From NCBI GenBank assembly GCA_021513695.1, contig CP084166.1, positions 2,912,001 to 2,976,000 on the forward strand: a stretch of DNA of 64,000 bases, given 5' to 3'. A program made the position numbers and the translations under genes. Under the pieces are notes generated by a model, which was given only the letters and a program-made list of their open reading frames with translations, had not been told where the DNA came from and ran no database searches. Source of the stretch: Candidatus Heimdallarchaeum aukensis (GTDB taxonomy: Archaea > Asgardarchaeota > Heimdallarchaeia > Heimdallarchaeales > Heimdallarchaeaceae). Positions 11,163 to 60,901 of the stretch are shown piece by piece; positions within the stretch are counted from its first letter, which is position 1, and each line of letters opens with the position of its first letter.

Positions 11163-11494
11163 CCCAAAATAAATTTTCTCAGAAATATTATATAAAAATT
11201 ATTTAATATGCAATCGAGTAGAATGCTTGTCTTTATTATCTTCTATAACTTCTTAACTTTGTTTTTTTCTATATTTTTGAAAATTGCTAAAATTGATCAA
11301 TGCGTATTAATTTTAAATTGAATATTGAATAAGTTAAGAATCGAACTTAATATTATCTTTAAACTAACTTAATTTTAATTAATAGAGTTTTTTCAATCTT
11401 ATAATGCCAAACTAAAAAATAGAAGAAATGAATTCTGTTTTAGTTATAGATTCAAAATTAATTCTCGATAAAAAAGAAGAAAAAGTAAGTAAAT

Positions 11495-42877: not shown

Positions 42878-43192
42878 TTATTGTGTTTTTAAGAGTTTTA
42901 CCAGAGGTTGAATCAACTTGTCAATTCTATCAAAGGCTTCTTTTATATCTTGTTCATATGCCCAAACGTGTATGTCTCCTAACAGCAGTTCTAAATTTCT
43001 ATCTTTTTCTGTTTTCATTAAGGCAAAACCTAACCAATGTCTAACTAATGCTAAAAACCCATCAATTGAACAATTACCTTTTAAAACTTCATTATATTGT
43101 TTTATTATCAATTGTGCTGCTGCAGTAAGAGTTAGTTCTTCTTTGATTTCCTTTGTGTTAGATTTCATTAAGTATAGATTCCTTATAAACAA
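42878..43192 (-). CDS. hypothetical small alpha-helical protein (104 aa) lying between the array's terminal repeat and the solitary degenerate repeat
   Basis: Intact ORF with no motif recognised. Confidence 0.35.
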   Translation of the reverse strand: MFIRNLYLMKSNTKEIKEELTLTAAAQLIIKQYNEVLKGNCSIDGFLALVRHWLGFALMKTEKDRNLELLLGDIHVWAYEQDIKEAFDRIDKLIQPLVKLLKTQ

Positions 43193-43372
43193 ATAAAGGT
43201 TGTTTTTAGTAGTGTTAAAAATGCATTTAGGTGGTTTTTCAGCTCGTCCCTTTACTTTTTACGATGTTTCTAAACTTTTTAAATCTTCAGAAACGGAAAA
43301 AATTGTTAGAAAAAACGTTTCTTACATAATAAAGAAAGAATTTGAATATGTTATTACTAAACAGCTTAATAT

Positions 43373-45865
43373 ATTTCAATCCCACTATGGTCTGATTCTA
43401 ACAAGATTTAACTGATTTTGCTGCGTGTAATATTCCTAGATTTCAATCCCACTATGGTCTGATTCTAACGATTTTAACGAGGGTAACTCTGACGCTGAGC
43501 ATATAAATTTCAATCCCACTATGGTCTGATTCTAACTAAAATAAAATAAAATACAATAAAGGTGATTAATATAATTTCAATCCCACTATGGTCTGATTCT
43601 AACTATGTGGGTAACTTTATTAACTTTAGATGTTAAAAACATTTCAATCCCACTATGGTCTGATTCTAACGCAATCGAACAAACTGACACAAATATTAAC
43701 CTATACATTTCAATCCCACTATGGTCTGATTCTAACACATTTTTGAACCATTTAACAAGTCTAAATTGTTCTATTTCAATCCCACTATGGTCTGATTCTA
43801 ACATTAGTGTTTGGTTTTTTGCTCTATTATTGTCTTTAATTTCAATCCCACTATGGTCTGATTCTAACACAATGATCAAATTTATACCACAACAATTAAT
43901 GCGAAATTTCAATCCCACTATGGTCTGATTCTAACCTACTAATCATGAAGATATAATCTATTCATTTAGTTAATTTCAATCCCACTATGGTCTGATTCTA
44001 ACAAGATAAATGGTCTGAAATCAAAAAACATCATACTTATTTCAATCCCACTATGGTCTGATTCTAACTTAATCATATTCTTATTAATTATGCTTCTGCT
44101 AGTGCATTTCAATCCCACTATGGTCTGATTCTAACAGACTCTTCCCCATTTGTGTGTGAGCAACTAAACAAAATTTCAATCCCACTATGGTCTGATTCTA
44201 ACGATGATCTAAGAGAATTAAACGAATATATCAGCAGAATTTCAATCCCACTATGGTCTGATTCTAACTATGATCCTACGCTTGCTTTGTAATCCTGATG
44301 ATGAATTTCAATCCCACTATGGTCTGATTCTAACTAAGAAAAGAACGCATCAAGCGTTTTCTTGAAGAATAATTTCAATCCCACTATGGTCTGATTCTAA
44401 CTCATCATCAAAATGCCGACGGCTCGACTGAATTTTAATTTCAATCCCACTATGGTCTGATTCTAACTCATTCCTCAACTTGAGAGCGTCAGAATGAGAA
44501 AAAATTTCAATCCCACTATGGTCTGATTCTAACAGGTTATTAATCTGTGAAATAATATTGCTTTCAGTATATTTCAATCCCACTATGGTCTGATTCTAAC
44601 GCAATCGAACAAACTGACACAAATATTAACCTATACATTTCAATCCCACTATGGTCTGATTCTAACACATTTTTGAACCATTTAACAAGTCTAAATTGTT
44701 CTATTTCAATCCCACTATGGTCTGATTCTAACATTAGTGTTTGGTTTTTTGCTCTATTATTGTCTTTAATTTCAATCCCACTATGGTCTGATTCTAACAC
44801 AATGATCAAATTTATACCACAACAATTAATGCGAAATTTCAATCCCACTATGGTCTGATTCTAACGTGATTTTATTAATGATTTTGTTAATAAGCTTAAT
44901 TCATTTCAATCCCACTATGGTCTGATTCTAACTAACTTAACCATGATTGCTGAAGAAGGCGACCCATTAATTTCAATCCCACTATGGTCTGATTCTAACG
45001 GAATATTATTGTTACTGTTAGGTTTTTTGGCTACTTATTTCAATCCCACTATGGTCTGATTCTAACAAATACGAATATTTAGGTAAATGTATTGCTCGAG
45101 CTAATTTCAATCCCACTATGGTCTGATTCTAACAAATACGAATATTTAGGTAAATGTATTGCTCGAGCTAATTTCAATCCCACTATGGTCTGATTCTAAC
45201 TGATCTACACAGTTTATGCTTTGATTGATCGATATTGATTTCAATCCCACTATGGTCTGATTCTAACAGAATTAGCAAATTCAGAAAGAGAGTTAGTTAC
45301 CTGATTTCAATCCCACTATGGTCTGATTCTAACATATGGTCAGAAGTAAACGCAAGATTAGAATTTATTGATTTCAATCCCACTATGGTCTGATTCTAAC
45401 AGCATTTGCCAAAGTAATTAATGCCGAATTCTTGCTTATTTCAATCCCACTATGGTCTGATTCTAACAAAGCAGTACAAATCAAATACAATAATAGATTG
45501 ATAATTTCAATCCCACTATGGTCTGATTCTAACCCAGGAGTTCCTCGCATTCAAAGCATGGAAAGAAAGATTTCAATCCCACTATGGTCTGATTCTAACG
45601 CTCTATTCCATCGCTGAGGCCTAAGCCTAATGCACATTTCAATCCCACTATGGTCTGATTCTAACATTATGGCCTACATAATTTAACAATTAGTATTGTT
45701 AGATTTCAATCCCACTATGGTCTGATTCTAACAATGTCGTAAATGCAGGAATGGAGATTTCTATATTGAATTTCAATCCCACTATGGTCTGATTCTAACC
45801 CATTTACTGAATTCTCTACACATTTAGATCAACTCATTTCAATCCCACTATGGTCTGATTCTAAC
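43373..45865 (-). CRISPR. CRISPR array of 38 identical 30-bp repeats and 37 spacers of 36-37 bp
   Basis: The direct repeat ATTTCAATCCCACTATGGTCTGATTCTAAC recurs with a 66-67-bp period. Read on the minus strand it is GTTAGAATCAGACCATAGTGGGATTGAAAT, ending in the ATTGAAAT 8-nt handle typical of type I-B repeats. This sets minus-strand transcription, leader at the cas2 side. Confidence 0.97.
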
Positions 45866-45964
45866 ACTTCATATTTCCTATATTTTTGATAATAATAAGG
45901 CTTTTCTTTTTATTTACATTCGTGTTCCTCCCATTTGGTGTTTACTTTATAAATATCTACATTC
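45866..45964 (-). promoter_or_regulatory. CRISPR leader (~99 bp, AT-rich) between the cas2 stop and the first repeat
   Basis: Its position, and a TTTATAAA TATA-like element on the transcribed strand about 70-80 nt upstream of the first repeat. Confidence 0.5.
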
Positions 45965-46228
45965 TTATAATATATTTGATTTATTTCCTTTTTGTATTCC
46001 TATTTCTTTTCTTTCTAAATATTTTTCATCTCTTAATGTATATACTAATATACTATCTTCACTTTTTTTTATCATTTTTTCAATATTTTTTATTATTGAG
46101 CGCAATTCTGCTTTTGTTATTTCTCCTTCAAAAACACTATTTTGTATCCATTCCAGATATGTTTTCAGAAACCTTCTTACTTTGTCTATTCTTTCTACTT
46201 TTATATCATATACTATAATAACATACAT
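45965..46228 (-). CDS. cas2: CRISPR-associated endoribonuclease Cas2
   Basis: MYVIIVYDI...NSVFEGEIT matches the Cas2 signature (87 aa). Confidence 0.9.
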   Translation of the reverse strand: MYVIIVYDIKVERIDKVRRFLKTYLEWIQNSVFEGEITKAELRSIIKNIEKMIKKSEDSILVYTLRDEKYLERKEIGIQKGNKSNIL

Positions 46229-46231
46229 GCA

Positions 46232-47218
46232 TTACCACCACGATATAAGTGGTTTGTATTCTAATTCACCCAAAAAGTGTTTACAAAGCTTATATAATTC
46301 AAGCCTTATTAGCCTTTTGTAACTCACATTTCTTTTTAATTCTTTGTGTTTTATTCTTGTTTTTAATTTTTGGTCCCAAAGTTCAATGAATTTTCTTTTT
46401 CCTGTCTCTGATAGCAACAAGTTTCCTATTTTTCCTTCAAAATCTTTATCGTTGAGTATTTTCTTATTTACCAAAGTTAATATTACTCTATCTGATAATA
46501 TGGGTTTAAAAATCTCACTCACATCAAGAGCAAGAGAAAATCTTCTTTCAAAAGGTTCATGTAAATATGAAATTGTAGGATTCAGTTGTGTATTATATAT
46601 TTCTGAGAGTATTGTAGTGTATAGAAGCGAATTACCAAAACTAATTAAAGCGTTCATTCTATTTGTAGGAGGTCTTCTTTCTCTTTTCACAATCTTAAAT
46701 TCTTTAGGAACAATTTGATCAATAGCTAAGTAATATTTATTTCGAATACTGCCTTCCAATCCCATTATCTTCTTAATTTCTAATATTTCTTGAATTTTTT
46801 TTGTTTCTTCTTCTATTTTTGAAATTATGTCACCAATTATTGAATCTTTTCTTCTACTCTTTAGGATTTTAATTATGTTAAAAGCTGAACCTCGAACAAA
46901 TTTTTTAGCTAATTTCAATCTTTTTGGATAAGATAGATAGTGTGCTGCTTGTTTTATAATCATATCTCCGCTAAGCAGTGTTTCTCGGGGATATAATGTA
47001 CTTTTATACCAACCATAATGATCAAAAAAGTGCACTGGAATTCCTTTTTTTCCAAGAAATAATACCACTCCGCCTGATAGAGAAAGATTTCCATATGCGT
47101 AGATTGCATTTATTCTTTCAACAGGTAAAGCTCTTTTCACATCTTTACAATGGAAATACAATGTATTTTCTTTTCTGTATAAAATTCCATTTTTCACAAT
47201 ATAAAATTCTTTTTTCAT
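46232..47218 (-). CDS. cas1: CRISPR-associated integrase Cas1
   Basis: 328 aa with Cas1-like sequence, between cas4 and cas2. Confidence 0.85.
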   Translation of the reverse strand: MKKEFYIVKNGILYRKENTLYFHCKDVKRALPVERINAIYAYGNLSLSGGVVLFLGKKGIPVHFFDHYGWYKSTLYPRETLLSGDMIIKQAAHYLSYPKRLKLAKKFVRGSAFNIIKILKSRRKDSIIGDIISKIEEETKKIQEILEIKKIMGLEGSIRNKYYLAIDQIVPKEFKIVKRERRPPTNRMNALISFGNSLLYTTILSEIYNTQLNPTISYLHEPFERRFSLALDVSEIFKPILSDRVILTLVNKKILNDKDFEGKIGNLLLSETGKRKFIELWDQKLKTRIKHKELKRNVSYKRLIRLELYKLCKHFLGELEYKPLISWW

Positions 47219-47749
47219 CTAAACCACATAACAAAAGTCTTTATACGCACACTTTGTGCATTTTGATGTTTTGATTTTTTTTGGAAGCGGTTTTTCAATT
47301 ATTTTTTCAATTTTGTTCAAAATTAGAAGAAGTTCTTTTTTATTTTCTTCAGTTAAAGTGACATTTTTCTTTTTATTTTCCTTTGGGTAGCGAATTTCTC
47401 CTTCTGCTTTTACTCCGTATCGATCTAAAAAGTAAAGATAGTAAAGTAGCTGATAGTAGTCAGCTTCTTCGTTGATACTTGATTTTTTAACTTCATTTAA
47501 TATTAATTTGTTCTTTTTATGCAAAAAATCTACATTTATAGCATCTAAGATTGTAATGTTTTTTTTCTCTCTCCGATATGATTCTTCATGTATTTGCCTT
47601 CCAATCAAAACTTCTTCATTTTCATTTTCCAATTGAATATTCCTTGCATACAACCATAGTTTCCTTTTACAAATAAAATAATAAGATACCATTACTCCAG
47701 TTATTTGTTTTGAATGTCCAAATAAGTTATTCATCACGTTCACTTTCAA
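47219..47749 (-). CDS. cas4: CRISPR-associated RecB-like nuclease Cas4
   Basis: An N-terminal Cys (YYFICKRK) plus the C-terminal CTKCAYKDFC Fe-S cysteines. 176 aa. Confidence 0.8.
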   Translation of the reverse strand: MKVNVMNNLFGHSKQITGVMVSYYFICKRKLWLYARNIQLENENEEVLIGRQIHEESYRREKKNITILDAINVDFLHKKNKLILNEVKKSSINEEADYYQLLYYLYFLDRYGVKAEGEIRYPKENKKKNVTLTEENKKELLLILNKIEKIIEKPLPKKIKTSKCTKCAYKDFCYVV

Positions 47750-50577
47750 ATTATAAAACTCTGATCAAAAACTTCATTTAGTTTCCTTATATCCAATCCC
47801 TCTTCATAAGAAAACTTGATTAAGTTTAGAAATTCTTTGTTTACTTTAATGTATCCTCCTAATTCCTCAAATTCTCCTGTTCTGACCTTTTCTTTTATTA
47901 AGTGAATTAAAAGACGACTCTTTGAATCTATTTGTACGTATCTATTTGAAAGAGAGACAGTAAACTTGTTTAAATATTTTTGCAATTTCTTTATTTCAAT
48001 ATATCTCTCATTTTTATTTTGATTATTACAAGTAATTTGTAAAAACTTTTTCCAGACTTTTTCTCCACAAATATTAGAATCTTCAACAATCTCATTTTTC
48101 TCTAAAAACTCTTTTTCACTTTCAGGTAGTAGACTCGGGTTAATTTTTAATGATATAGGTAAAAAAATGCTAATAGTGTCACTGTTAATTACTCTGATTT
48201 TTCCTAATTCTTTAAATCTTAAATAGTTCATTGGTTCAATTATTTGCGATATTGTTATTCCATACTCACTTTCTTCTTTCTTTTTATACTCAATGGTATA
48301 CCTGTAGAACTCAGCAAATCTTTTTTCCTTGATAAATTCTTCTAATTCTTCTTTTCTATTTTCTTGGACCTTAAATCTTGTATCTACACCGTATATCATT
48401 TCCGCAGAATCCATATTGTAGACATAGAGTATGCTCTCTTCTTTACTTCTCTTATTTTCTCGATTGATCCTTCCAGCTATTTGTTCGATTGAATCAAGTA
48501 TTGCATATTCTCTAAATCCGAAATCACAATCAATATCTACACCCGCTTCTACTGATTGAGTTGATACCAAAACAACATTCCTTTCATGTGTTTCCTGATT
48601 CATTAATTGAATGATCTCTTTTCGCCTATCTGGAAGAATAGTTGAATTCAATAGGAGTAATTCAAAATTTTTTTTATCTAGATTGTTTTTTAAGTGCTGA
48701 AAGATGTTTATGGAGTTTTGTATTGTATTAGTCACGCAAAGAATTTTTTTCTTCCTTCTTTTACAACAATTTTCATATATTTTCTCTATGAAAAAGTCTA
48801 AAGAAGCAATTTCTTTAATATAGAAATTCAGAGTGTTACGAAGGAATAACTTGCTTTGAAAATACATATCAGAATTTTTTAAAAGAACTGAACATTTGTT
48901 CTTTTGCTCATTATCAAGAAATAGAGATAAATCAGGAAGCGTTGCACTCATTAAAATAAAATACATATTATAATTCTCTGCTAGTTCTCCTATGAGATTA
49001 ATAAAGGCATTCCAAAGATTTACAGGGATTGATTGTACTTCATCCATGATAATAATACTGTTAACAAAATTGTGCAGTTTTATATTAGCTTTTCTGGAAT
49101 TTCTGAAGAAAGTTTCAATAAAGTTAACACTACTAATGATATTGATCTGATTGTTCAGAAACATCTGATTAAGAAGAATTTTAGTCTCTTCGAATTCTTC
49201 CATAGTAAAATCCCATTCTATAAGTGAATAAATCTCTGAAATTGAAATATGTTCATTTTCACTAGAGAGCGTTTCTTTAATGACTTTTGCATTTTGTTCT
49301 ATAATATTAATGAAAGGAAAAACATAGTTGATTCGTTGTAAATTTTTTGTGTGTTGGTTGTTCAGAATGTCTAATGCCAGTTTTATTGACGTATTTGTTT
49401 TTCCGCTCCCTGTTGGTGATCTAAAAAAGAAAATTCGTTTTGCTTTATTTAACTCCTTCTCTAGAATACTACTACATTCAATCAAAATTCTTGTTCGTAG
49501 CTCATTTATATCTTCGATAAAGTTAATGTTTTTCTTTAACAGTTTATCAACTAAAGTTTTATCTTTAATTTGTTGATTAAATATCTTGTTTTTAAAAAAG
49601 TTAGAAACCAAGTTTTTTTTACATTTTTCATCAATTAAATTGAATTCAAGTTCACTTATATCCCAGTTATTTACAAAAGAAGCTGTAGCATAGCTATCAG
49701 CTGAAATTAAGAGAGAAAATATAAGTTTATAAAAATGAAATAGAGTATTTCCATCTTGTAATTTCTCCAAAGTAAATTTTCTTATCTTCGAATTATTGCA
49801 ATATCTTCTGAAAAGACTTAAGTTATCATCTGATATTTCAATTAATGTGCATTTTTTAATAAAGTTTATGTTCCTCTCTTCTAGTAGTTTTTTTTCTCTC
49901 TCCTCTAAATACTCTTCTATATTCTTTAATCTAGAATGATGTCTATTTACACTACTATTTAGAACTAGACTTAAGAAAAACAATTGAAAAGTTAAAAGAA
50001 GAATCTTTTTTTCTTTTTTTTCTCCCTTTTTTTGCTGAATCCCTTTCATAATGTTAAAGATCTCTTGTATGTTAAAATAATCTAAAAATATCTGCCCAAA
50101 CTCACTGTGATTTTTTGAATTACCAAAGAAATTTTCTACCGTTTCCTTTATTTTTTGATCTAATTGTTGAAATGAAAGATTTAATTTTAACACTTTTCTT
50201 TGATAGTTTGGATTTATTTTTCCAAAGTCGTGAAAATAGATTATTCTTGCAATATTTGTTTTTATGAAATCTCCAAATTTGTTTAAAGAAAGAATATCTT
50301 GATCTATATTTAATGCATTATAAATTTTTGTTATCATGTTATTGAAAATATCTTTTAATTTATACTCCTTAATAATTCTTTCAAAAATTTTTAAAGTAAG
50401 TTCAGAGTGTTGAGATAAACTTTCTACTTCGCCTGTTGGAGACATGTGGGCTTTTATTGAACTTTCAACTAATTTAGAAAACTCTTCTACAAGGAATTTA
50501 TCATAACTATATTCACCTAAAATATTAGAACAGGAAAATTGTTTCTCCATTTTCATCACTAACAAGAATATATTCAT
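47746..50577 (-). CDS. cas3: Cas3 HD-nuclease/helicase fusion
   Basis: HD motif IYFHDFGK, Walker A SPTGSGKTN and DExQ box IIMDEVQ. The 5' end overlaps cas5 by 53 bp; the true start may be the Met 8-10 codons downstream. Confidence 0.85.
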   Translation of the reverse strand: MNIFLLVMKMEKQFSCSNILGEYSYDKFLVEEFSKLVESSIKAHMSPTGEVESLSQHSELTLKIFERIIKEYKLKDIFNNMITKIYNALNIDQDILSLNKFGDFIKTNIARIIYFHDFGKINPNYQRKVLKLNLSFQQLDQKIKETVENFFGNSKNHSEFGQIFLDYFNIQEIFNIMKGIQQKKGEKKEKKILLLTFQLFFLSLVLNSSVNRHHSRLKNIEEYLEEREKKLLEERNINFIKKCTLIEISDDNLSLFRRYCNNSKIRKFTLEKLQDGNTLFHFYKLIFSLLISADSYATASFVNNWDISELEFNLIDEKCKKNLVSNFFKNKIFNQQIKDKTLVDKLLKKNINFIEDINELRTRILIECSSILEKELNKAKRIFFFRSPTGSGKTNTSIKLALDILNNQHTKNLQRINYVFPFINIIEQNAKVIKETLSSENEHISISEIYSLIEWDFTMEEFEETKILLNQMFLNNQINIISSVNFIETFFRNSRKANIKLHNFVNSIIIMDEVQSIPVNLWNAFINLIGELAENYNMYFILMSATLPDLSLFLDNEQKNKCSVLLKNSDMYFQSKLFLRNTLNFYIKEIASLDFFIEKIYENCCKRRKKKILCVTNTIQNSINIFQHLKNNLDKKNFELLLLNSTILPDRRKEIIQLMNQETHERNVVLVSTQSVEAGVDIDCDFGFREYAILDSIEQIAGRINRENKRSKEESILYVYNMDSAEMIYGVDTRFKVQENRKEELEEFIKEKRFAEFYRYTIEYKKKEESEYGITISQIIEPMNYLRFKELGKIRVINSDTISIFLPISLKINPSLLPESEKEFLEKNEIVEDSNICGEKVWKKFLQITCNNQNKNERYIEIKKLQKYLNKFTVSLSNRYVQIDSKSRLLIHLIKEKVRTGEFEELGGYIKVNKEFLNLIKFSYEEGLDIRKLNEVFDQSFII

Positions 50578-51319
50578 GAGTTATTGTTTCTTTCACCAAA
50601 AATTCAGAATTTGAAAAAACAACAGTTTTAAAAACATATTGATTTTCTCTGAAACCAATTGGATAATTTTGATAAAAGAAAAAGTCTATATCTGCATTTA
50701 CAATAAGATCTGTTTCATCTTTTGCTACAATATCATTAAAAACAATTGTTTTAAACCTTGTTTCTGTTTCACTAGTGATTTCTTTGTATTCATATTCTCC
50801 TTCATAAATAATACTTAATGGAAATTCGTTTTTCCCCATATAAGGCATGAAATGAGCTCGATTTTCTTGTAAATTTTTCTTTAGTTGAGCAAAAATGTTA
50901 TCTTGAGCAGTTCCTTTTTCTAAATAAATTCGATAAGCAGGCTTAATGAGAATTTGTTCATTTACAATTAAATTTCCTCCCGTTTCATAGCTTCCATAGC
51001 CATGAAAGTTAATAAATTGAATGAACTCTTTTCTTAAAGGCGAATAACTATTTTCAAAATCAGAGTCTTTATATGGTGCTTTAGAGCCTTTTTTAAGCTT
51101 TAAAGGTGTTATTCCAATTCTAATGCCAGAAAGTTTATCAATAAATTCAGGATTTTGCTTTTTTTCTCGATAACCTTCAAGACCTATCAGTGCTCCAAGA
51201 ATTCCAAGTACTGATGGTTTTGGAATAATATCATAGGTCAACTTTGTTTCAGTAATGTCAGGTTTACTAAAAGTTCCAAAGTCAGAAAAAATAATGAAGG
51301 ATAAAAGATTTCTCTTCAT
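50525..51319 (-). CDS. cas5: Cas5 (type I-B)
   Basis: The N-terminus FGTFSKPDITETKLTYDIIPKPSVLGILGALIGLEG matches the Cas5 signature. Confidence 0.8.
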   Translation of the reverse strand: MKRNLLSFIIFSDFGTFSKPDITETKLTYDIIPKPSVLGILGALIGLEGYREKKQNPEFIDKLSGIRIGITPLKLKKGSKAPYKDSDFENSYSPLRKEFIQFINFHGYGSYETGGNLIVNEQILIKPAYRIYLEKGTAQDNIFAQLKKNLQENRAHFMPYMGKNEFPLSIIYEGEYEYKEITSETETRFKTIVFNDIVAKDETDLIVNADIDFFFYQNYPIGFRENQYVFKTVVFSNSEFLVKETITHEYILVSDENGETIFLF

Positions 51320-51327
51320 ATCCTCAC

Positions 51328-52350
51328 CTAACTACTTAAAATGCTCCCGGTTAAGAGATTTTTTATCTCAAAGGTAATTTTCTCGTTTGTACTACTTTTT
51401 TCGATTTCAGTTTTAGCAGGGTCGATATAAACTTCAACTGTTATAGGATTATTCGGTGATAACACTTCTTTATTTTGGTTGATATAGTCCAATAATCTGT
51501 TTATCTTTATTCTAATTTTTCCTTTTTCTTCTGTATTTTCAAAATCTACAAAGTGTTTAAGGTTTTGAAGACAAATTGGATTATCATATTCAATATAGAT
51601 GAAACACTCTGTTTCAGAACCTATTTTTGTTGTTGAATTAACATTATGGACTCCTAATCTTGCTGCTTCCTTGAATATATCTATATCTGAATTAGATAAA
51701 AGGTATTGTTCTTTTTTTTCTAGTTTTTGAAGAACAAAATCTGACATTAAAGCATTTGGATTAATGATGTAATCAAATACATAGTGTATCTCTAATGCTT
51801 TTGTTTCTTCACCTATAGTTGTGTGCTTTGCTTCCTGTCCTTCTTTATCATCTCTATATGGAGATAATATCTGATTTATGTAATGGATATTCTCTTTTGT
51901 TGCGTTGATCCCATAGGAAATTTGTATTGGTCCTGTTATCGATAAACTTGAAAGATTTTTGCTTTTTGGAGCAAAAGTTACTCCAAACATTCTTACATCA
52001 ATGCAAGAAAGCAAATTTCTTAGGATTTGTCTGTCATCTTCTTTTTTATTTTTGTCATCAGAACTAAATAATGCATAGTAATTTTCCTCTAAGGTCATTG
52101 GACTTAGGTTGTCATTCCTTCTTCTCCAAGCGAAAATCTTAGAATCAGTTTTATTGTCTAGGATATATTTTCTGATGCAGTATTTCAGCGATTTATCTGT
52201 AGCATATATAGTCCCTTTCTCATCAGGAAGTCTTCTTGGCGTTCCTGAAAAGTCAGCATTGAAATTACTGTTTACTGACTTTACAATGATTAAGCCACTT
52301 ACGTGCTTTTCAAAAAGGTTATTTTCTGTATTGTTTTGATTTTCTTTCAA
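51328..52350 (-). CDS. cas7: Cas7 (Csh2/Cst2-type backbone subunit)
   Basis: GLIIVKSVNSNFNADFSGTPRRLPDEKGTIYATDKSLKYCIRKY matches the Cas7 N-terminal signature. Confidence 0.85.
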   Translation of the reverse strand: MKENQNNTENNLFEKHVSGLIIVKSVNSNFNADFSGTPRRLPDEKGTIYATDKSLKYCIRKYILDNKTDSKIFAWRRRNDNLSPMTLEENYYALFSSDDKNKKEDDRQILRNLLSCIDVRMFGVTFAPKSKNLSSLSITGPIQISYGINATKENIHYINQILSPYRDDKEGQEAKHTTIGEETKALEIHYVFDYIINPNALMSDFVLQKLEKKEQYLLSNSDIDIFKEAARLGVHNVNSTTKIGSETECFIYIEYDNPICLQNLKHFVDFENTEEKGKIRIKINRLLDYINQNKEVLSPNNPITVEVYIDPAKTEIEKSSTNEKITFEIKNLLTGSILSS

Positions 52351-52352
52351 TT

Positions 52353-54425
52353 TTAATCCTCCTTTTTCATGAAAAATATATTTTCATCAAAAAATCCAAC
52401 GTAGAAACTCATTTTAATCTCATTAAAGGGTTGTGAAAAGTTATTTGCCAAATAATTCAGTGTCTCAGCAAAAACGATGTGTCTAAAGTCCTTGTATTCA
52501 GAGATTTCATGAAGATATTTTTCTAGATATTTTTCTAACAAAATTCTCTTTAAGTTTATAGGCGATTGTACAGACACTAAAGGTGTTAGTAGTTTCATTT
52601 TTTTATCTGCGTTGGATTTGCTGATTAAGTAGTAAACCATTTGTCCTAAATAATAGGCAAATTTTTCAGGGGAATCGATCTTAAAAGATTCTCCGTTAAT
52701 TATTTTCTTTTTTTCTTCTCTTATTTTGTCTAACATGATCTCACCATTTTTATTTTTTTTAATAAAATTATCATTTACTTTACTAAAAAGATCAGCGTTA
52801 AGATAAAAGTTTAAAATTTCATGTATCTGACTTTTTGTTGAAGTATTTTTTCCAGTTTCACTGTGCATTATAAATTTATTTTCTAATAATTTAGTTGTAA
52901 TTTCAGCAATATCGTTATCTGTTAAACATATCTCGCTTCTATAAATTGTATCAAAGAATTTTTTTCTATACTTGTAGATAAGATATTTTTGTTCTGTTAT
53001 ACCACTTTTTTTCTTTGTGTCTAAATCCCCAAAGAACTTGATCTTAAGATCAAAAATTTTTTTTAACTTTTTCAACAAATCTTCTTTTCCAAATTTCTTA
53101 CTAGATTGTGTTCCAAGATATTCTTTATATTCGGAATTTCCGTTGAAGTACAGACGATAGTTAGATATGTAATCAAAAAAAATGATCGATTTTTTATTTA
53201 TTATATTTACTAATATGATATCAAATGAATTTAGGTTGCTTCTTTTTTGAATTTCCTTTATTGTCAAAAAAAAGAATTTTCTTTTATTTTTATTATCCTT
53301 TTCTAATGATTTTAATGACTTAATAAAGTCTATTTGTTCTTTAACTAAGCTTTCTTTGATAAAAAGTGGAAAAATGTTTATCTTATTTTCTTTAAGAAAA
53401 TAGAGAAAGTTATTAAAATATTCTGCGCATGAAATACAAATTTTTATTGTATGTTTAAGATGCCTGTCAAATTTAATAGAAAAAGGCTTTTTTTCATTAA
53501 ATGATGTATAATTTGAAATATTTCCCATTTCTCCTTTTCTTCCACAAACAGGGCAAGTAGACTCAATAATTGTGTCTCTGGTAACAAACAACTTAAGAAT
53601 AATGTATTGTTCAAAAAGCTCTTCTATAACTTGATAGTTTTTATAGTTTAAGAAAACATATGCTTTGTCACATAATCTCAATAGTATATTTAGTTTTTTT
53701 AGTAAACTATACTCTTGTTCTGATACTTGATTTCTTATATTATCTATGTACTTTTTGCTTTTAATATTCTTATATTCTCCTTCTTGTAAATTAGTTCCAC
53801 CTAAAATATCCTTATTATTTTGGTCTAATAAACCAAATATGTTAAGTAATTCTCGATAAAAATGTTCATAAGTGAGCATAATCTTTGTCTTTTCTTTGTT
53901 TTTGTTTGAAGTAATTATCTCATTGATAAATTCCTTTGTTTTGTTATTTTTGACTGTATTTAAAATTAATTTCAAGTATTCGTTTTTTAAGTTAAGTTTT
54001 GAGATTCTTTCGAGAGGTTTATTTTTTCCCTTTTCATAAAGCGGATTTCTGAATAAACTTCCTAGTTTAAAATGAAATAATGAAAAAGTGTTTAATCCGC
54101 TTGTACTTCCTATGTACTTATTAGAATCTGATATTGTGGAAGTATATTTTTTAAAATCTAGTACTTTTATTAGTTCTTTTTCTTTTCTTAAAAGACTAAA
54201 AGGTTCTTTATTTGGAAAATCTTGAACAAGCTCATCATTTAGATCGGTTATTATTCTAAATCCTTTATATGAATTTTCTAGATTCCAATCTACTTCAATG
54301 AGAAAAATAACAGGAAATTGTTCTTTAATAGAATCAATATCATAATCTTCACTTACTACTAACTGTTGAGTGTTTTTTTCCATCTTTTCAAGTTCTTTCA
54401 TAAATTTAATTGATTCGATTATCAT
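52353..54425 (-). CDS. cas8b: Cas8b (type I-B large subunit)
   Basis: A 690-aa protein between cas6 and cas7 with an internal Zn-finger-like CPVCGRKGE...CISCAEYF. Confidence 0.65.
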   Translation of the reverse strand: MIIESIKFMKELEKMEKNTQQLVVSEDYDIDSIKEQFPVIFLIEVDWNLENSYKGFRIITDLNDELVQDFPNKEPFSLLRKEKELIKVLDFKKYTSTISDSNKYIGSTSGLNTFSLFHFKLGSLFRNPLYEKGKNKPLERISKLNLKNEYLKLILNTVKNNKTKEFINEIITSNKNKEKTKIMLTYEHFYRELLNIFGLLDQNNKDILGGTNLQEGEYKNIKSKKYIDNIRNQVSEQEYSLLKKLNILLRLCDKAYVFLNYKNYQVIEELFEQYIILKLFVTRDTIIESTCPVCGRKGEMGNISNYTSFNEKKPFSIKFDRHLKHTIKICISCAEYFNNFLYFLKENKINIFPLFIKESLVKEQIDFIKSLKSLEKDNKNKRKFFFLTIKEIQKRSNLNSFDIILVNIINKKSIIFFDYISNYRLYFNGNSEYKEYLGTQSSKKFGKEDLLKKLKKIFDLKIKFFGDLDTKKKSGITEQKYLIYKYRKKFFDTIYRSEICLTDNDIAEITTKLLENKFIMHSETGKNTSTKSQIHEILNFYLNADLFSKVNDNFIKKNKNGEIMLDKIREEKKKIINGESFKIDSPEKFAYYLGQMVYYLISKSNADKKMKLLTPLVSVQSPINLKRILLEKYLEKYLHEISEYKDFRHIVFAETLNYLANNFSQPFNEIKMSFYVGFFDENIFFMKKED

Positions 54426-55141
54426 TCAATCACCTCAATACAACCAAATCCCAACCCTGTTTTCTCTCCAAGGCCTGTATTGTATGCAAATTTTAACAAT
54501 TCTCTACTCGCTTGGACATCAAATGTCATCAAAGTACATCTTCTGTAGCTATTTTTTATTAAAACTCTTTTTAGTTTTAAATTGCGAATACTCGTTATTT
54601 CAAAGAAGTCTTGCTTCGGTTTTCTTCCAAAATATCTATAATATCTTTCTAACAGGTTTTTATGTAAATTTTCACTAAATTTAAGATCCCTTGGTGTAAG
54701 GTCATAAGGTTTTAGCTTTCCTTCTTTGTTGCGTCTCAAAGTCTTAACATATATTGGAGAAAGTGTTTTTAAAGTACAATCTGATTTAATATTTTTTTTA
54801 TTTTCAATTTTAATTCTCTTTACTACAAACTGCTGGGTCCCTAAATGGAATTTTAAATCTTTAAAAACGCCTGTTGCTAATCCGTCTAAAAATTCGTTAT
54901 CGATGGATGTAAAGTAAAAGAATGCTTCTTTAAAATATAATCCTTTTTTTGAAAATTTTTTCTCTTCTATTATTAAATTTGAAAAATTGTAATATTTGAA
55001 CTTTGTTTTTCTGTGTAATCTTTGTGAGACTTCTTTCTTTGAATCACTGATTTTTCTTAATATTGCACTAGTTAACCAATGTTGATAATTAAAATTTAAT
55101 GGACCATCAGTGATCTTTTCAACAAAGATTTTTAATCTCAT
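54422..55141 (-). CDS. cas6: Cas6 pre-crRNA endoribonuclease
   Basis: The C-terminal glycine-rich loop GLGEKTGLGFGCIEV. First gene of the operon. Confidence 0.8.
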   Translation of the reverse strand: MRLKIFVEKITDGPLNFNYQHWLTSAILRKISDSKKEVSQRLHRKTKFKYYNFSNLIIEEKKFSKKGLYFKEAFFYFTSIDNEFLDGLATGVFKDLKFHLGTQQFVVKRIKIENKKNIKSDCTLKTLSPIYVKTLRRNKEGKLKPYDLTPRDLKFSENLHKNLLERYYRYFGRKPKQDFFEITSIRNLKLKRVLIKNSYRRCTLMTFDVQASRELLKFAYNTGLGEKTGLGFGCIEVIE

Positions 55142-55306
55142 AATATCACATTTTCATTATATAATTGTCCTACACATATAAAAATATTTCGTATTTTTGC
55201 AACAATGTTATTTTTTTGGGACAGTATCGTATTACTATGACTGTTTTATTATCTATTGACAATCTTTTACCAAAAGATTTATTTTAAATAAATCAAATCT
55301 TTTCAT

Positions 55307-55945
55307 GTGAAGACAATTATAACTCCCTCTGGATTTGAGCCAAAGCCAATTATTTCTTTTATTGTTAAAGAAGGAATTAGTAAAGAAGATAGAATAATCA
55401 TCATAAGACCAAAAGAAGATAAGATGCCTAAAGATGCAAAAGATGCTCTCTCAGAAATTAAAAAATTTATTAGTTTAATATCAGAAGATATTGAAATAGA
55501 TCTTAAATTCGTTGACATTTCTGATTTCGATATTCTTCTAATTGATTTACTTGAAATATTCAAAAATATAAATGGAGAAGTTATTGTAAATACTTATGGA
55601 AGTGTTAGAGAAATTACAATTGGCTTAACAATAATTAATCTTCTTTTTAAAAGAAATATATCAAAAGTTTATCATTATTCGAGAATGGATGAAGAATGCT
55701 TCTTACTAAATCTACCTGCAATTGTCTTCCCATTGGAGGGTATGGAAAAAAAAATACTTTTATTACTGGAAAACTCTGCTATTAATGATTATAACAGTTT
55801 GGCTAAAACTTTAAAAGTTTCAAAAAGTACAATCTCACGCGTAGTCCATATTTTAAATGACAAGAAGCTGGTTTCTGTTACAGAAACAGGGAAGAAAAAA
55901 ATAATAAAATTGTCTGTATCAGGACGATTATTAGCAAATTTATGA
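55307..55945 (+). CDS. csa3: Csa3-like CRISPR-associated transcriptional regulator (CARF-like N-domain plus C-terminal wHTH)
   Basis: 212 aa. The C-terminal SLAKTLKVSKSTISRVVHILNDKKLV is an HTH. Transcribed divergently from cas6. Confidence 0.55.
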   Translation: MKTIITPSGFEPKPIISFIVKEGISKEDRIIIIRPKEDKMPKDAKDALSEIKKFISLISEDIEIDLKFVDISDFDILLIDLLEIFKNINGEVIVNTYGSVREITIGLTIINLLFKRNISKVYHYSRMDEECFLLNLPAIVFPLEGMEKKILLLLENSAINDYNSLAKTLKVSKSTISRVVHILNDKKLVSVTETGKKKIIKLSVSGRLLANL

Positions 55946-55973
55946 AAAAATTTCTTTTCTTAATATTTCACTT

Positions 55974-56003
55974 TTTATAATCAGACCATAGCGGGATTGA
56001 AAT
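55974..56003 (+). repeat. solitary degenerate CRISPR repeat in crRNA orientation on the plus strand (3 mismatches versus the consensus)
   Basis: TTTATAATCAGACCATAGCGGGATTGAAAT versus GTTAGAATCAGACCATAGTGGGATTGAAAT. It lies 29 bp after the csa3 stop. Confidence 0.55.
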
Positions 56004-56324
56004 TATTATTCTATTTAGTTTGACTTATTATACTGGTCTGTTTGTAGAAATTTTCAAAGCAACTTTCGATAGTTACAGAAAAATCGTTATCTAATATCCA
56101 TGCGATGAAGAAACAGATGAAAGACTGATTCAATACTTTTTTGGAGATAAAAATGGAATTTTTTTAAATATCTTTTCTATATGCTTTTTAACAATGTTTT
56201 TAACAACTGCTTCTTTTTTTTGTTCTTTATTTTTAGTTTGTGATGCAAAGTTCTTTTTTCTATAAACTTCTCTGTCTTAAAGAGAATTTTCTTCATTTAT
56301 AAATAATCTTTTGAATTTTTAATT

Positions 56325-57305
56325 ATGACAGTCATACTTCAAACTAGAAATTTGTATAAGACATATGATAAAAAGGTTAAAGCCGTACAAGGAATAGATT
56401 TAGAAATAAAAAATGGAGAAGTTTTTGGATTACTTGGTCCAAATGGCGCAGGAAAAACGACTTTAATAAAGATGCTCGTTGGAATCTTGAAACCTGACAA
56501 AGGAGAAATTTTGTTCAATGGCATTAAATTAAACGGTACGACTGAACTAAAAGGACTGATAGGTTATGCTCCACAAGAATTAGTTTTCTATCCTTTCTTA
56601 ACTGTCTTAGAAAACATGCAACTTTTTGCTAGTCTTTACTCGATTAAAAATGCAAGAAAACGTATAGATGAAATTTTAGAACTTTTTCAACTTACAGAGT
56701 TGTCAAAAAGACAAGCTGAAAAGATGTCAGGAGGTCAGAAGCGTCGATTAAATATTGCTTTAAGTTTACTTCACTCACCACAGATTCTCTTTTTAGATGA
56801 ACCTTCTTCAGGTATGGATCCGCAGAGTAGAAATGTGTTATGGGAAAGTGTAGAACAATTAAAAGAGAAAGAAGGGGTAACCATCCTTTTATCAACTCAT
56901 TTAATGGAAGTAGCTGATAAACTGAGCGATAGAGTTGCGATAATTGATCATGGAAAGGTTCTAACAGTTGGAACACCTGATGAGTTAAAATCAAAACATG
57001 CATCTATTGAGACAGTGGAAATTCAATTTGCAAAAAATATTTCTCCTTTAATACAAGAAAAAATAACTCTTCAGTTGAAAGATAAGTATGAACAGCTTTC
57101 GACAGCAAATGACAGGTTCTTTATTAAAACAAAAAACGGTTTGAAAGCAATATCTGATATTATGAAAACTATTGAAAGTCTAGCAGTTCTTTCCTACTTA
57201 CAAGATATACAACTTCGTCTTGGAACGTTAGAAGATGTATTTTTGAATCTAACAGGAAAAGAACTTAGAGAAAATAATTTTAGTTTTGGAGGTGATAGGA
57301 GATGA
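56325..57305 (+). CDS. ABC transporter ATP-binding protein (ABC-2 exporter type)
   Basis: Walker A GPNGAGKTT, signature LSGGQKRRL and Walker B LFLDEPSSGMD. Confidence 0.9.
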   Translation: MTVILQTRNLYKTYDKKVKAVQGIDLEIKNGEVFGLLGPNGAGKTTLIKMLVGILKPDKGEILFNGIKLNGTTELKGLIGYAPQELVFYPFLTVLENMQLFASLYSIKNARKRIDEILELFQLTELSKRQAEKMSGGQKRRLNIALSLLHSPQILFLDEPSSGMDPQSRNVLWESVEQLKEKEGVTILLSTHLMEVADKLSDRVAIIDHGKVLTVGTPDELKSKHASIETVEIQFAKNISPLIQEKITLQLKDKYEQLSTANDRFFIKTKNGLKAISDIMKTIESLAVLSYLQDIQLRLGTLEDVFLNLTGKELRENNFSFGGDRR

Positions 57306-58603
57306 ATTTGAGAAATAACAAGTTTGTTCAACTATTAAGTGTAAACCTTAAAGCAATTTATAGACAAAGAATGGTTCTTTTCTTTACGCTTCTCTTTCCC
57401 TTGATATTTATTGGTGTTTTCGGTATATCCTATGGTGGAGATGGGGCAACAACTCGTACTATGGATCTTATAGTAATTAACAATGATTTAGGTATTCCTG
57501 AAAACACTGTAGCTTTTTATGGAAATGAAACTGTTTCAGGGACATTTTACTCTGAAAAGTATTTAGAATTACTAGGCAATCTTGTTTACCCGGATTCAAA
57601 AGACAATAAATCTGTTTTTTTTATTACTGTCATCAATGAAACAGAAAGAGACAATGCACTGTTCAAACTTGAACGAAGAGAAATCGTTGCTCTTCTTACT
57701 TTACCTGAAGATTTTAGTTTAGGTATACTCTTTAGTTTTAGAACACAATTTAGCAACGATAGCTTCTTTTCTTTATTGACTAACAATTGGTCTGGTTACC
57801 CAGAAAGCTCACTTTCGGTAGAAATTACTATACTAGGAGACTCAAGTACAGAAGAGTTTGCTATTGCAGGGCCTATTATAAATGAATTCAGTAAAATGTT
57901 TTTTCAGCTAGGAAATGAACAACAAACTGGAGTGAATGTTAACATAATCGGAAACTACCAAACTAAAGGTTTCAGCACATTTTACTATATTGTTCCTGGT
58001 GTTATAATTTTCGGTGTGTTGCAATCCCTCACTTCTGGAGCAAGCAGAACTATGCGCGATGTAGACTCAAAGAATTTGGAAAGAATTCGTTTAACTCGTG
58101 TAGCTTCTTATACTTATGTAAGCGCGCTTATTGTTAGTCAAGCCTTGTTAGTTGCTATTCAAGTACCAATAATGTTTGTAACAGCAATGCTTTTTGGATT
58201 AGAACTATCGATACATGTATTAAGCGGAATAATTGTAGGAATTATTCTTTCTTTCGCCACTACAGGAATAGCCTTTTTGCTTGCTGGACTTGTACGTAAA
58301 GGTGACGAAGCAGAAGGGTTAGCTAATCTTATAGCTGTTCCAATGGCTTTTCTCTCTGGATCTTTTACCGTTATGCCAAACCCTGAAATTCTTCCTAATG
58401 TTGGCTGGTTAGGAGGAAACTCTTTGCGATTGTTTGATTTCTTGCCTTCTACCCCTGCTGTAAGAATATTACGTTCTTTAATTCTTGGACAAAGAACTTT
58501 AGGTGAGAATTGGTTTGATCTATGTCTATTAACTCTGCTAGCCTTTCTCTACCTTGGACTGGGGTTGGGTGTATATATTCAAAAACACTTGAGAATGAAA
58601 TAG
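57302..58603 (+). CDS. ABC-2 type transporter permease
   Basis: An N-terminal TM helix, a large extracytoplasmic loop and a C-terminal multi-TM bundle. Start overlaps the ATPase gene by 4 bp. Confidence 0.75.
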   Translation: MNLRNNKFVQLLSVNLKAIYRQRMVLFFTLLFPLIFIGVFGISYGGDGATTRTMDLIVINNDLGIPENTVAFYGNETVSGTFYSEKYLELLGNLVYPDSKDNKSVFFITVINETERDNALFKLERREIVALLTLPEDFSLGILFSFRTQFSNDSFFSLLTNNWSGYPESSLSVEITILGDSSTEEFAIAGPIINEFSKMFFQLGNEQQTGVNVNIIGNYQTKGFSTFYYIVPGVIIFGVLQSLTSGASRTMRDVDSKNLERIRLTRVASYTYVSALIVSQALLVAIQVPIMFVTAMLFGLELSIHVLSGIIVGIILSFATTGIAFLLAGLVRKGDEAEGLANLIAVPMAFLSGSFTVMPNPEILPNVGWLGGNSLRLFDFLPSTPAVRILRSLILGQRTLGENWFDLCLLTLLAFLYLGLGLGVYIQKHLRMK

Positions 58604-58628: not shown

Positions 58629-58976
58629 TTATCCTTCTTTTTTTTCTTCTAGTATGGTTGTTAATGCTGTGGTCATTAGATTTGCATACTCTTGGATAGA
58701 GTTTACCCCTTTCTCTGTTAAATATAAAATAGTTGTAGGTTTGGCTTTAATGAACGCTTTTTGAACTTCAATTAATCCATTCTCTTCTAGTTTCTTAATG
58801 TGAGAAGAAAGATTACCTGCAGTTAAGTCTAAAACCTTTTGAACTTCAGTGAAAAGAGCTTTTCCTTTAGGTAAAAGAAATATCATAATCGCTAGTCTAA
58901 CAGGTGTGTGAATAATATCATTAACACTAGCGACTTCTTTGAGAACATTCTCCTCCTCAGAACTCTCTTCACGCAT
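58629..58976 (-). CDS. ArsR/SmtB-family winged-helix transcriptional regulator
   Basis: PVRLAIMIFLL...FTEV...TAGNLSSHIKKLEENGLI HTH pattern (115 aa). Confidence 0.65.
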   Translation of the reverse strand: MREESSEEENVLKEVASVNDIIHTPVRLAIMIFLLPKGKALFTEVQKVLDLTAGNLSSHIKKLEENGLIEVQKAFIKAKPTTILYLTEKGVNSIQEYANLMTTALTTILEEKKEG

Positions 58977-59055: not shown

Positions 59056-59150
59056 TGTTTAAACTAAACTTAGACATGTCAAATGATGCTCATCTTTTCT
59101 AGGAGAAGTTTTATTAGGCATGTTTAAACTAAACTTAGACATGTCAAATG
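59056..59150. promoter_or_regulatory. two 30-bp perfect direct repeats (TGTTTAAACTAAACTTAGACATGTCAAATG at 59056-59085 and 59121-59150) in the divergent promoter region; candidate operator sites
   Basis: Read directly from the sequence. They sit between the ArsR-like gene start (58976) and the start of the gene at 59242. Confidence 0.5.
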
Positions 59151-60251: not shown

Positions 60252-60901
60252 TAACTTGATCAAATAGAGTTAAAGTTAGGTGTCATTCTCTTTGGAGGAA
60301 GTTTCGGAATTAGTGGAGTAATAAGTAATTTATTCAAGAACAATTAAAAGTTAAAAGATGTAATAGCTTCTTTTATTCCTTTTTTATACATTCCATTTGC
60401 TTACCTGCAATCAATTTACTTTAATTTCTAAAATAATTGTTTTATTCTTATTGACTAAATAAAGAAGATTTGTATTTAACATGTAATCTTGTTAATTTTA
60501 ATTAACAAGTTTTAATAGAAAGAAAACTCATCATCAACTACTACTTTTTATCAAAATAGTTCTTTATTATAAGTTGTTATCTAATAAGGAGATACATACA
60601 AGAAGGAAGATAATTTTACTCATGAAGAGTCCTTTTAACGAATATGAACGTAAAATGAGCTTAAAAAGAATAAATATCAACTTAATTTCGTATAAGGAAT
60701 ACATAAGTATGTACAAATCCAAGATTATGTTGCAAGAATGAAGCTGATTTACTGTAGTTCTCTTTTTTACTAATAATTATTTTTTGAAAAAGAAAAAATG
60801 GCTGTAATAACAAACAGTGATTGTGTGATGATATTAATTTCTTGTTAATGAAAGAGAAAAATTTATAGAAAATTGTCGATTAATCAACTTTGTGAATTTA
60901 T

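Follow-up and report, generated by a model that had tools for sequence, protein, structure and literature searches.

A crRNA-like regulatory gene of the CreA or CreR kind needs a repeat that keeps its handle, a seed match at a PAM-flanked promoter site, and usually either a second degenerate repeat or a T-rich terminator. In characterised type I-B systems, the 8-nt crRNA handle comes from a repeat 3' end of the ATTGAAAT type (PMC8501985). The seed of CreA is made up of nucleotides 1–5 and 7–11 (seeds of CreA and CreR RNAs can be longer), and there are creA genes that have just one repeat and end in a T-rich terminator (PMC8501985). Degenerate mini-arrays of type I-B loci have also been reported, or predicted, to regulate the promoters of cas6 or cas8 (Shmakov et al. 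2023, bioRxiv 10.1101/2023.03.03.530964). According to the same study, leaderless mini-arrays and single-repeat units occur in 12–15% of loci, and mini-arrays that have no target are classed as probably degraded and non-functional. Recombination between repeats is a described route of loss (PMC8501985). The CRISPR loci in the genomes of Heimdallarchaeum aukensis and H. endolithica were described by Wu et al. 2022 (PMC8813620), who do not mention the lone repeat that we analyse here.

The window (the whole 64-kb stretch of H. aukensis DNA that was analysed) contains a complete type I-B CRISPR-Cas locus, whose Cas6 is 100% identical to the H. aukensis protein. The cas operon is on the minus strand (45965–55141), in the order cas6 (54422–55141), cas8b (52353–54425), cas7 (51328–52350), cas5 (50525–51319), cas3 (47746–50577), cas4 (47219–47749), cas1 (46232–47218), and cas2 (45965–46228). 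The cas1 product matched TIGR03641, the type I-B Cas1b model, with 447 bits, and the other genes were identified by NCBIfam and Pfam scans. Adjoining cas2 is the leader of the main CRISPR array (45866–45964, minus strand), and then comes the array itself (43373–45865, minus strand), which has 38 identical 30-nt repeats and spacers of 36–37 nt. Read on the minus strand, the repeat consensus is GTTAGAATCAGACCATAGTGGGATTGAAAT, with ATTGAAAT as its 3' end. At the other end of the operon, csa3 (55307–55945, plus strand) is transcribed divergently from the cas genes. It encodes a CARF and wHTH regulator (TIGR01884, Csa3, 82.5 bits; PF22662) that shares 90% amino acid identity with Csa3 of H. endolithica.

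Within the main array, a block of four spacers is duplicated (43671–43905 is the same as 44601–44835), and another spacer is duplicated in tandem (45067–45103 and 45134–45170). The spacer at 44933–44969 is found in the H. endolithica array as well (36 of 37 positions), and the leader-end spacers of a second H. aukensis-type assembly (L005) differ from those of the window. Both ends of the region between cas6 and csa3 (55142–55306, compared with 9836–10000 in the H. endolithica contig L001) are strongly conserved, and the middle ~55 nt are hypervariable, with an extra TTTTTTATAAA element in H. endolithica-type loci. The conserved ends probably hold two promoters of the leaderless type with TATA-like boxes.

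We searched both strands of the window for the repeat consensus, allowing up to three mismatches. This returned the 38 perfect minus-strand copies in the array (43373–45865) and exactly one copy on the plus strand (55974–56003), where a further copy is not expected by chance (none in 100 shuffles). The plus-strand copy, TTTATAATCAGACCATAGCGGGATTGAAAT, is in crRNA sense and matches the consensus at 27 of 30 positions, with mismatches G1>T, G5>T, and T19>C; blastn aligned 25 nt of it to the array repeat at 96%. Its last eight nucleotides (55996–56003), which would form the crRNA 5' handle, are ATTGAAAT, as in the consensus. The sequence-only reading had reported a lone degenerate repeat downstream of csa3 with a polarity opposite to that of the array, and this is what we find, in the intergenic span (55946–56324) that it had described. 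The repeat has what is expected of a standalone repeat: it is intergenic in the cas locus, outside the array, and has a match of at least 16 nt to the locus's own repeat.

The repeat begins 28 nt past the csa3 stop codon. The gap (55946–55973, plus strand) is T-rich, with T4 at 55955 and T5 at 55972, and has no similarity to the leader of the main array. With one repeat only and this unrelated upstream sequence, the element does not look like a bona fide array. A TATA-like sequence (TTTTTATA, 55972–55979) overlaps the start of the repeat and is the only 7/8 match near it; transcription would start at about 56002–56006, downstream of the handle. Because 7/8 matches occur 3.7 times per kb per strand, we consider this match to be weak evidence either way. 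A scan with Rfam gave only sub-threshold matches, and a scan for bacterial promoters and terminators is uninformative for an archaeal host.

To compare homologous loci, as the sequence-only reading had proposed, we used contigs that carry the same Csa3 or a 90%-identical one. Two of these are from H. endolithica PR6 (L001 and L002), one is an H. endolithica-like contig (L003), and four are H. aukensis-type assemblies (L004–L007). The four H. aukensis-type assemblies are independent and are identical to the window over whatever part of the region each covers. A scan of genome contigs for further relatives found H. endolithica alone, two scans of metagenomes (one for the protein and one for a DNA pattern) found none, and a word-indexed search for Csa3 homologues gave a single one.

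L001, L002, and L003 all have a repeat at this site downstream of csa3 (10686–10715 in L001 and 2547–2576 in L003), and the site exists in three states. In L003, there is a two-repeat mini-array: a first repeat that differs from the consensus only by T at position 1, a 37-nt spacer (TATTGTTCTATAGCTTTTTTTGCTGCTGCACGATAGA), and a perfect second repeat. In PR6, there is one repeat, TTTAGAATCAGACCATAGTGGGATTAAAAT, with T at position 1 and with G26>A inside the handle. The same 97-aa gene comes directly after the single repeat in PR6 and after the mini-array in L003. The window has the first repeat, again with T at position 1, followed only by TATTATTCTAT (56004–56014, plus strand), which agrees at 10 of 11 positions with the start of the L003 spacer (TATTGTTCTAT). 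Control comparisons of spacer prefixes with the main array's 37 spacers gave 9/11 at best, so the match appears unusual but not overwhelming. Given this match, the shared T at position 1, and the orthologous position, we regard TATTATTCTAT as homologous to the start of the L003 spacer. The two-repeat state would therefore predate the species split. The suggestion in the sequence-only reading that the repeat might be a relic of a second array is thus borne out by an L003 mini-array at the orthologous position whose spacer begins like the sequence in the window.

The boundaries of homology fit with these three states. In a blastn comparison, positions 54000–56003 of the window aligned to 8694–10715 of H. 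endolithica (86%); the match ends exactly at the 3' end of the repeat and resumes at 60595. Against L003, but not against L001, homology continues for 11 nt beyond the repeat. [quoted passage not shown] The csa3 genes of L001 and L003 are 99.7% identical, which implies that the collapse from two repeats to one was recent and was tolerated.

Beyond the 11 nt, the sequence up to the ABC-transporter gene (56015–56324, plus strand) is specific to H. aukensis, contains no ORF of over 40 aa, and has no homology to H. endolithica-type loci. We looked for a second degraded repeat, which in a mini-array would be expected 20–60 nt downstream, by semiglobal alignment to 56004–56110. The best score was 6; controls averaged 6.4, and 63% of them scored at least as high. 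Candidates that had been placed by eye, with MAFFT, or by the semiglobal alignment were likewise not above background. On this account the window has the single-repeat form and L003 has the mini-array form. The sequence-only reading had proposed a pseudo-spacer of ~36 nt. Unique sequence does follow the repeat, but with the second repeat undetectable, the 3' end of any pseudo-spacer (36–37 nt) is undefined. It appears from the alignments to be a chimera, with 11 ancestral nucleotides and then unrelated sequence.

Several other candidates in this region were set aside. MAFFT aligned a CAAAGCAACT motif (56055–56064) with the flank after the second repeat of L003. A short CAA(T)AGCAACT match suggested that 56040–56110 might be the conserved block that lies upstream of a family of small genes (see below). 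The nhmmer profile of this block had no match there even at E = 100, and it recovered the true copy in the window (43154–43206) at E = 3e-12. The similarity of 56034–56100 to the region beyond a degenerate minus-orientation repeat in L001 was not above that of shuffled sequences. Breaks in the assemblies of two read sets at 56141 and 56160, which might have indicated a structural variant, coincide with homopolymer runs of T. Three overlapping Rfam matches to C/D-box snoRNAs at 56097–56184 (plus strand) are below threshold (E of 0.1–3; 13–24 bits versus gathering cutoffs of 38–60). This stretch has a C-box-like GCGATGA and a CTGA, the full C/D/C'/D' layout is not evident, and the matches are probably due to chance. 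On the minus strand, 56177–56296 contains a 39-aa lysine-rich ORF (MKKILFKTEKFIEKRTLHHKLKIKNKKKKQLLKTLLKSI), divergent from the ABC-transporter gene, which may be spurious in such AT-rich DNA.

We think that the lone repeat is probably a decaying remnant of a second CRISPR array that was small and had no leader, a mini-array. The common ancestor of both Heimdallarchaeum species would have had a repeat, a 37-nt spacer, and another repeat downstream of csa3, transcribed away from the cas operon. The two-repeat state would survive in the H. endolithica-like strain (L003). In H. endolithica PR6, recombination between the near-identical repeats would have taken out the spacer along with one of them. 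In H. aukensis, a rearrangement would have removed everything beyond about the 11th nucleotide of the spacer, so that lineage-specific DNA and an ABC-transporter island now follow, and the surviving repeat would have gathered point mutations. Read-through from csa3 and a cut by Cas6 might still yield an orphan guide without a cleavable target, and there is no sign of its use. The orthology, the three states, the breakpoint, and the missing second repeat are observed; how the events followed one another, and that the element has no function today, we infer.

Repeats on this side of the operon are found in other loci. In two distantly related type I-B loci that come from other samples (L009, 1–28; L010, 1–29; Cas6 35–44% identical), cas6 is directly preceded by a repeat of the same family, oriented relative to the operon as the lone repeat is, and the contig ends inside the repeat in both cases. 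A repeat or array on the cas6 side is therefore not unusual. The L009 repeat is identical to the Heimdallarchaeum repeat despite the low identity of Cas6.

The gene that follows the mini-array belongs to a family of small proteins (94–97 aa) that is confined to Heimdallarchaeum (2 representatives among 1.84 billion proteins). The window has a 96-aa member at the trailer of the main array (42878–43168, minus strand), and PR6 and L003 have a 97-aa and a 96-aa gene (10757–11050, plus strand, and 11145–11435, minus strand, in L001). AlphaFold predicts a four-helix bundle (pLDDT 80), and we found no match to the predicted structure in the PDB. All copies share an upstream block, CAACnnTTATTTGTTTnTAAGGA, and each follows a CRISPR repeat or a degenerate repeat in the same orientation. 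The distance from repeat to ATG is about 40 nt for the two PR6/L003 copies, and about 180 nt separate the gene in the window from the last perfect repeat. In L001, a degenerate repeat (20/30; 11476–11505, minus strand) precedes the second small gene. Because every gene of this family follows a repeat and has the shared block, the mini-array with its 97-aa gene resembles a former array's trailer end and the gene that comes after it, which agrees with a relic of a second array.

Is the element under constraint? Main-array repeats are identical at 30 of 30 positions in H. aukensis and H. endolithica, and the lone copies have diverged. We compared three variants of the repeat (from Heimdallarchaeum, L010, and Methanobrevibacter sp. 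AbM4) and found that T19 and G26 are invariant. The lone copy of H. aukensis has lost T19, which is beside the expected Cas6 cut, and that of PR6 has lost G26, which is inside the handle. These losses and the very recent loss of the PR6 spacer favour relaxed constraint. On the other hand, the repeat and the 11-nt seed are identical between the window and L003 at 38 of 41 positions and form an island between sequences that can no longer be aligned. Third codon positions of csa3 are 75% identical between the window and the H. endolithica type. Three differences in 41 nt are below this neutral rate of 25% (p about 0.004 by a binomial estimate), and the seed taken alone (1 difference in 11) does not reach significance. 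The conservation of the repeat, but not that of the seed, could be due to gene conversion from the 38-copy array. Also against decay, the conserved 11 nt are exactly the length of the CreA seed, with the 8-nt handle intact, and a statistically unusual inverted repeat, described below, is not predicted by a model of pure decay.

This low divergence is why we still give some weight to a functional one-repeat crRNA-like gene of the Haloarcula hispanica creA or CreR kind, even if we think it unlikely. Read-through from csa3, or a short promoter, would supply the transcript, cleavage by Cas6 would give it the ATTGAAAT handle, and the RNA would end at a run of T such as 56051–56054. The predicted RNA of ~59 nt would load into Cascade and repress a promoter by seed-only pairing, without cleavage. 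Consistent with this, 27 of 30 positions of the repeat are retained along with the handle, and the 11 nt after the repeat are shared with the L003 spacer while the rest is unrelated. One-repeat creA genes with a T-rich terminator are known, and here there is a T4 at 56051–56054; regulation of cas6 or cas8 promoters by degenerate mini-arrays also has precedent in type I-B. Finally, L003 has a 10-nt match to nucleotides 2–11 of its spacer in the variable middle of its own cas6–csa3 region. That site is mismatched at position 1, has TGC in place of a PAM, and is not conserved in L001 or in the window; moreover, the seeds of the window and L003 differ at position 5.

The search for a target in the window speaks against a regulator. 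The sequence-only reading had pointed to partial seed matches in promoters as a check, and the local promoters have none of at least 8 nt. The cas6–csa3 region (55142–55306) is the only cas promoter region, and its best run of matches from the start of the seed is 6 nt. No seed match of at least 8 nt was found in this region or in nearby intergenic regions, and no prefix of over 6 nt was found in the leader, upstream of the ABC genes (56041–56324), or in the intergenic regions of the island. Neither 56041–56324 nor the nearby intergenic regions offered the pairing of nucleotides 1–5 and 7–11 with the promoter of an adjacent toxin that is seen for CreTA. The best seed matches on either strand of the whole window, with position 6 left free, are 13 nt at 15203 and 12 nt at 3490. 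Both are inside ORFs and at chance level: 47% of control 37-mers of matched composition reach at least 13 nt, so for such an AT-rich seed, target prediction has no statistical power. A 10-nt match at 54249, inside cas8b, was also discarded, as ~0.7 such matches would be expected by chance in the cas locus (estimated from base frequencies). In six scans of viral contigs for protospacers and a PAM, there was no match for the four leader-proximal spacers of the array, the L003 spacer, or the pseudo-spacer, and the supplements of Wu et al. 2022 have no usable table of spacers and targets from which to take a PAM.

Other features also weigh against a regulator. T19>C alters a base that is invariant in the repeat family, a T5 run is just upstream of the repeat, and a transcript from the only good TATA-like match would omit the handle. 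An addictive CreTA module would also be hard to square with PR6, in which the spacer is gone and the handle mutated, with no apparent harm. Near the lone repeat there are only arbitrary ORFs of 20–40 aa; none was recognised as a creT-like partner, and a divergent creT has no recognition model. The CreA-type layout that the sequence-only reading had proposed therefore draws support from the intact handle; a second degenerate repeat and a promoter seed match were not found and no toxin partner was recognised, which leaves it weakened. Because the handle and seed are retained, we keep a low probability for a one-repeat guide of this kind. More specifically, the repeat and seed might be a working one-handle guide, older than the split between H. 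aukensis and H. endolithica, that steers the I-B Cascade to a promoter at some other place in the genome, with a stem-loop and U-run that set its 3' end or couple it to csa3; we consider this quite unlikely. If it were true, it would be the first CreR- or CreA-type regulator in Asgard archaea in the literature that we searched, and it would be physically linked to csa3. It would extend crRNA-guided gene regulation, tied to Csa3, to the archaeal group that is closest to eukaryotes.

The stem-loop itself suggests another reading. An inverted repeat spans the lone repeat: its left arm (TTTTTATAATCAGACCA, 55972–55988, plus strand) covers the 5' half of the repeat, and its right arm (TGGTCTGTTTGTAGAAA, 56034–56050, plus strand) is followed directly by TTTT (56051–56054). 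The arms are complementary at 14 of 17 positions, with an exact 7-nt core (CAGACCA/TGGTCTG) and a 45-nt loop. The computed RNA fold has an energy of -18.6 kcal/mol (z = -2.4), and comparable inverted repeats are scarce (8 in 61 kb, or 0.13 per kb). The right arm is similar to the 5' half of the repeat in reverse complement; we looked for homology that would support an inverted copy of the half-repeat and found none. The csa3 transcript might end in a stem-loop, followed by UUUU, that has taken over the lone repeat as its 5' arm, and the aukensis-specific G5>T gives the stem an extra G-U pair. Such a stem-loop would act as a terminator, a stabiliser, or a Cas6-sensitive switch on the csa3 mRNA. 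We judge the co-option to be very unlikely, and the same goes for the predicted role. Because H. endolithica-type loci lack the inverted repeat, it cannot be counted as a conserved feature of csa3. A 45-nt loop is atypical, and archaeal termination requires only runs of T, one of which is already present upstream of the repeat. Also, L004–L007 are identical and represent a single haplotype. The inverted repeat could be a scar of rearrangement, a remnant of an inverted half-repeat, or a stem-loop at the csa3 3' end.

The least credible reading, which we consider extremely improbable, is that the lone repeat is an attachment or recombination site that was used by, or imported with, the neighbouring island, as might be guessed from homology to H. 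endolithica that stops exactly at the repeat's 3' end with island DNA next, and from the report of Wu et al. (PMC8813620) that HeimM1 is beside the cas operon. The 4.6-kb segment 56004–60594 is delimited by the break in blastn synteny and is absent from H. endolithica; in PR6, 869 bp with two small genes stand in its place. According to family scans, the proteins that it encodes include an ABC ATPase (56325–57305), an ABC-2 permease (57302–58603), and a wHTH protein (58629–58976, minus strand). HeimM1 was described as integrated next to the cas operon in H. aukensis (Wu et al. 2022, PMC8813620). This segment is probably that island, as the ABC ATPase and ABC-2 permease fit the description. We rejected the use of the lone repeat as its attachment site: L001 and L003 lack the island and have the repeat at the same place, so the repeat is the older of the two. 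The exact break is partly a product of the spacer loss in L001, since homology to L003 extends for 11 nt more, and there is no partial repeat at the right junction. Candidate direct repeats of the island are away from the CRISPR repeat, at 56081–56096 (AAATCGTTATCTAATA) and 60571–60586 (AAGTTGTTATCTAATA), with 4.49 kb between them; at the corresponding site of H. endolithica there is just one TTATTTCTAATA. An att site or a duplication of the target could account for them, and their position suggests that the island integrates at sites that have no CRISPR repeat. Between the wHTH gene and the next gene, there is also a perfect 30-nt direct repeat (TGTTTAAACTAAACTTAGACATGTCAAATG; 59056–59085 and 59121–59150, 65 nt apart), which could be a pair of operators.

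How does the vestige of a mini-array compare with described elements? It shares with creA (one repeat in Haloarcula hispanica and two in Halobacterium hubeiense; PMC8501985) a degenerate repeat with a conserved 8-nt handle, a conserved part of the spacer of the length of the CreA seed (11 nt), a T-run downstream, and an origin from a minimal CRISPR. Unlike creA, it has no adjacent toxin gene or promoter target that we could find, it was lost without consequence in PR6, and it is found past csa3, on the edge of the locus, whereas creA lies between cas6 and cas8. Like CreR (Liu et al. 2023, bioRxiv 10.1101/2023.03.10.532045), it stands alone in a type I locus as a degenerate, crRNA-like element with no recognisable toxin; the complementarity to a PAM-adjacent site in a cas promoter that defines CreR is missing here from the only cas promoter region.

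The best likeness is to the single-repeat units and mini-arrays of Shmakov et al. 2023: an intergenic repeat in a type I-B locus, outside the array and with no leader, whose position is kept in close loci. As in their mini-arrays, the upstream repeat is well kept and the distal one is degraded beyond recognition, while the sister lineage has two repeats. It differs from their regulatory cases, which in type I-B have a PAM-flanked partial match of at least 10 nt in the cas6 promoter; we found none at this locus. The lone repeat is thus a fairly ordinary feature, a standalone degenerate repeat of a kind that has already been catalogued. It is also a warning that a repeat by itself, if its handle is intact and unique sequence follows, can be taken for a creA gene; here the apparent spacer is chimeric. 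Arrays usually decay at the trailer end of a large array, and in this respect the locus is different, as the array at this site was never seen with more than two repeats. Taken at face value, the Heimdallarchaeum loci form a clean natural series of the loss of a leaderless mini-array, with two repeats, then one, then a mutated repeat and a shortened spacer, in the Heimdallarchaeia, a lineage whose CRISPR biology has barely been explored. The progression across the three lineages is the one that is predicted for the collapse of an array by recombination between its repeats and subsequent mutation.
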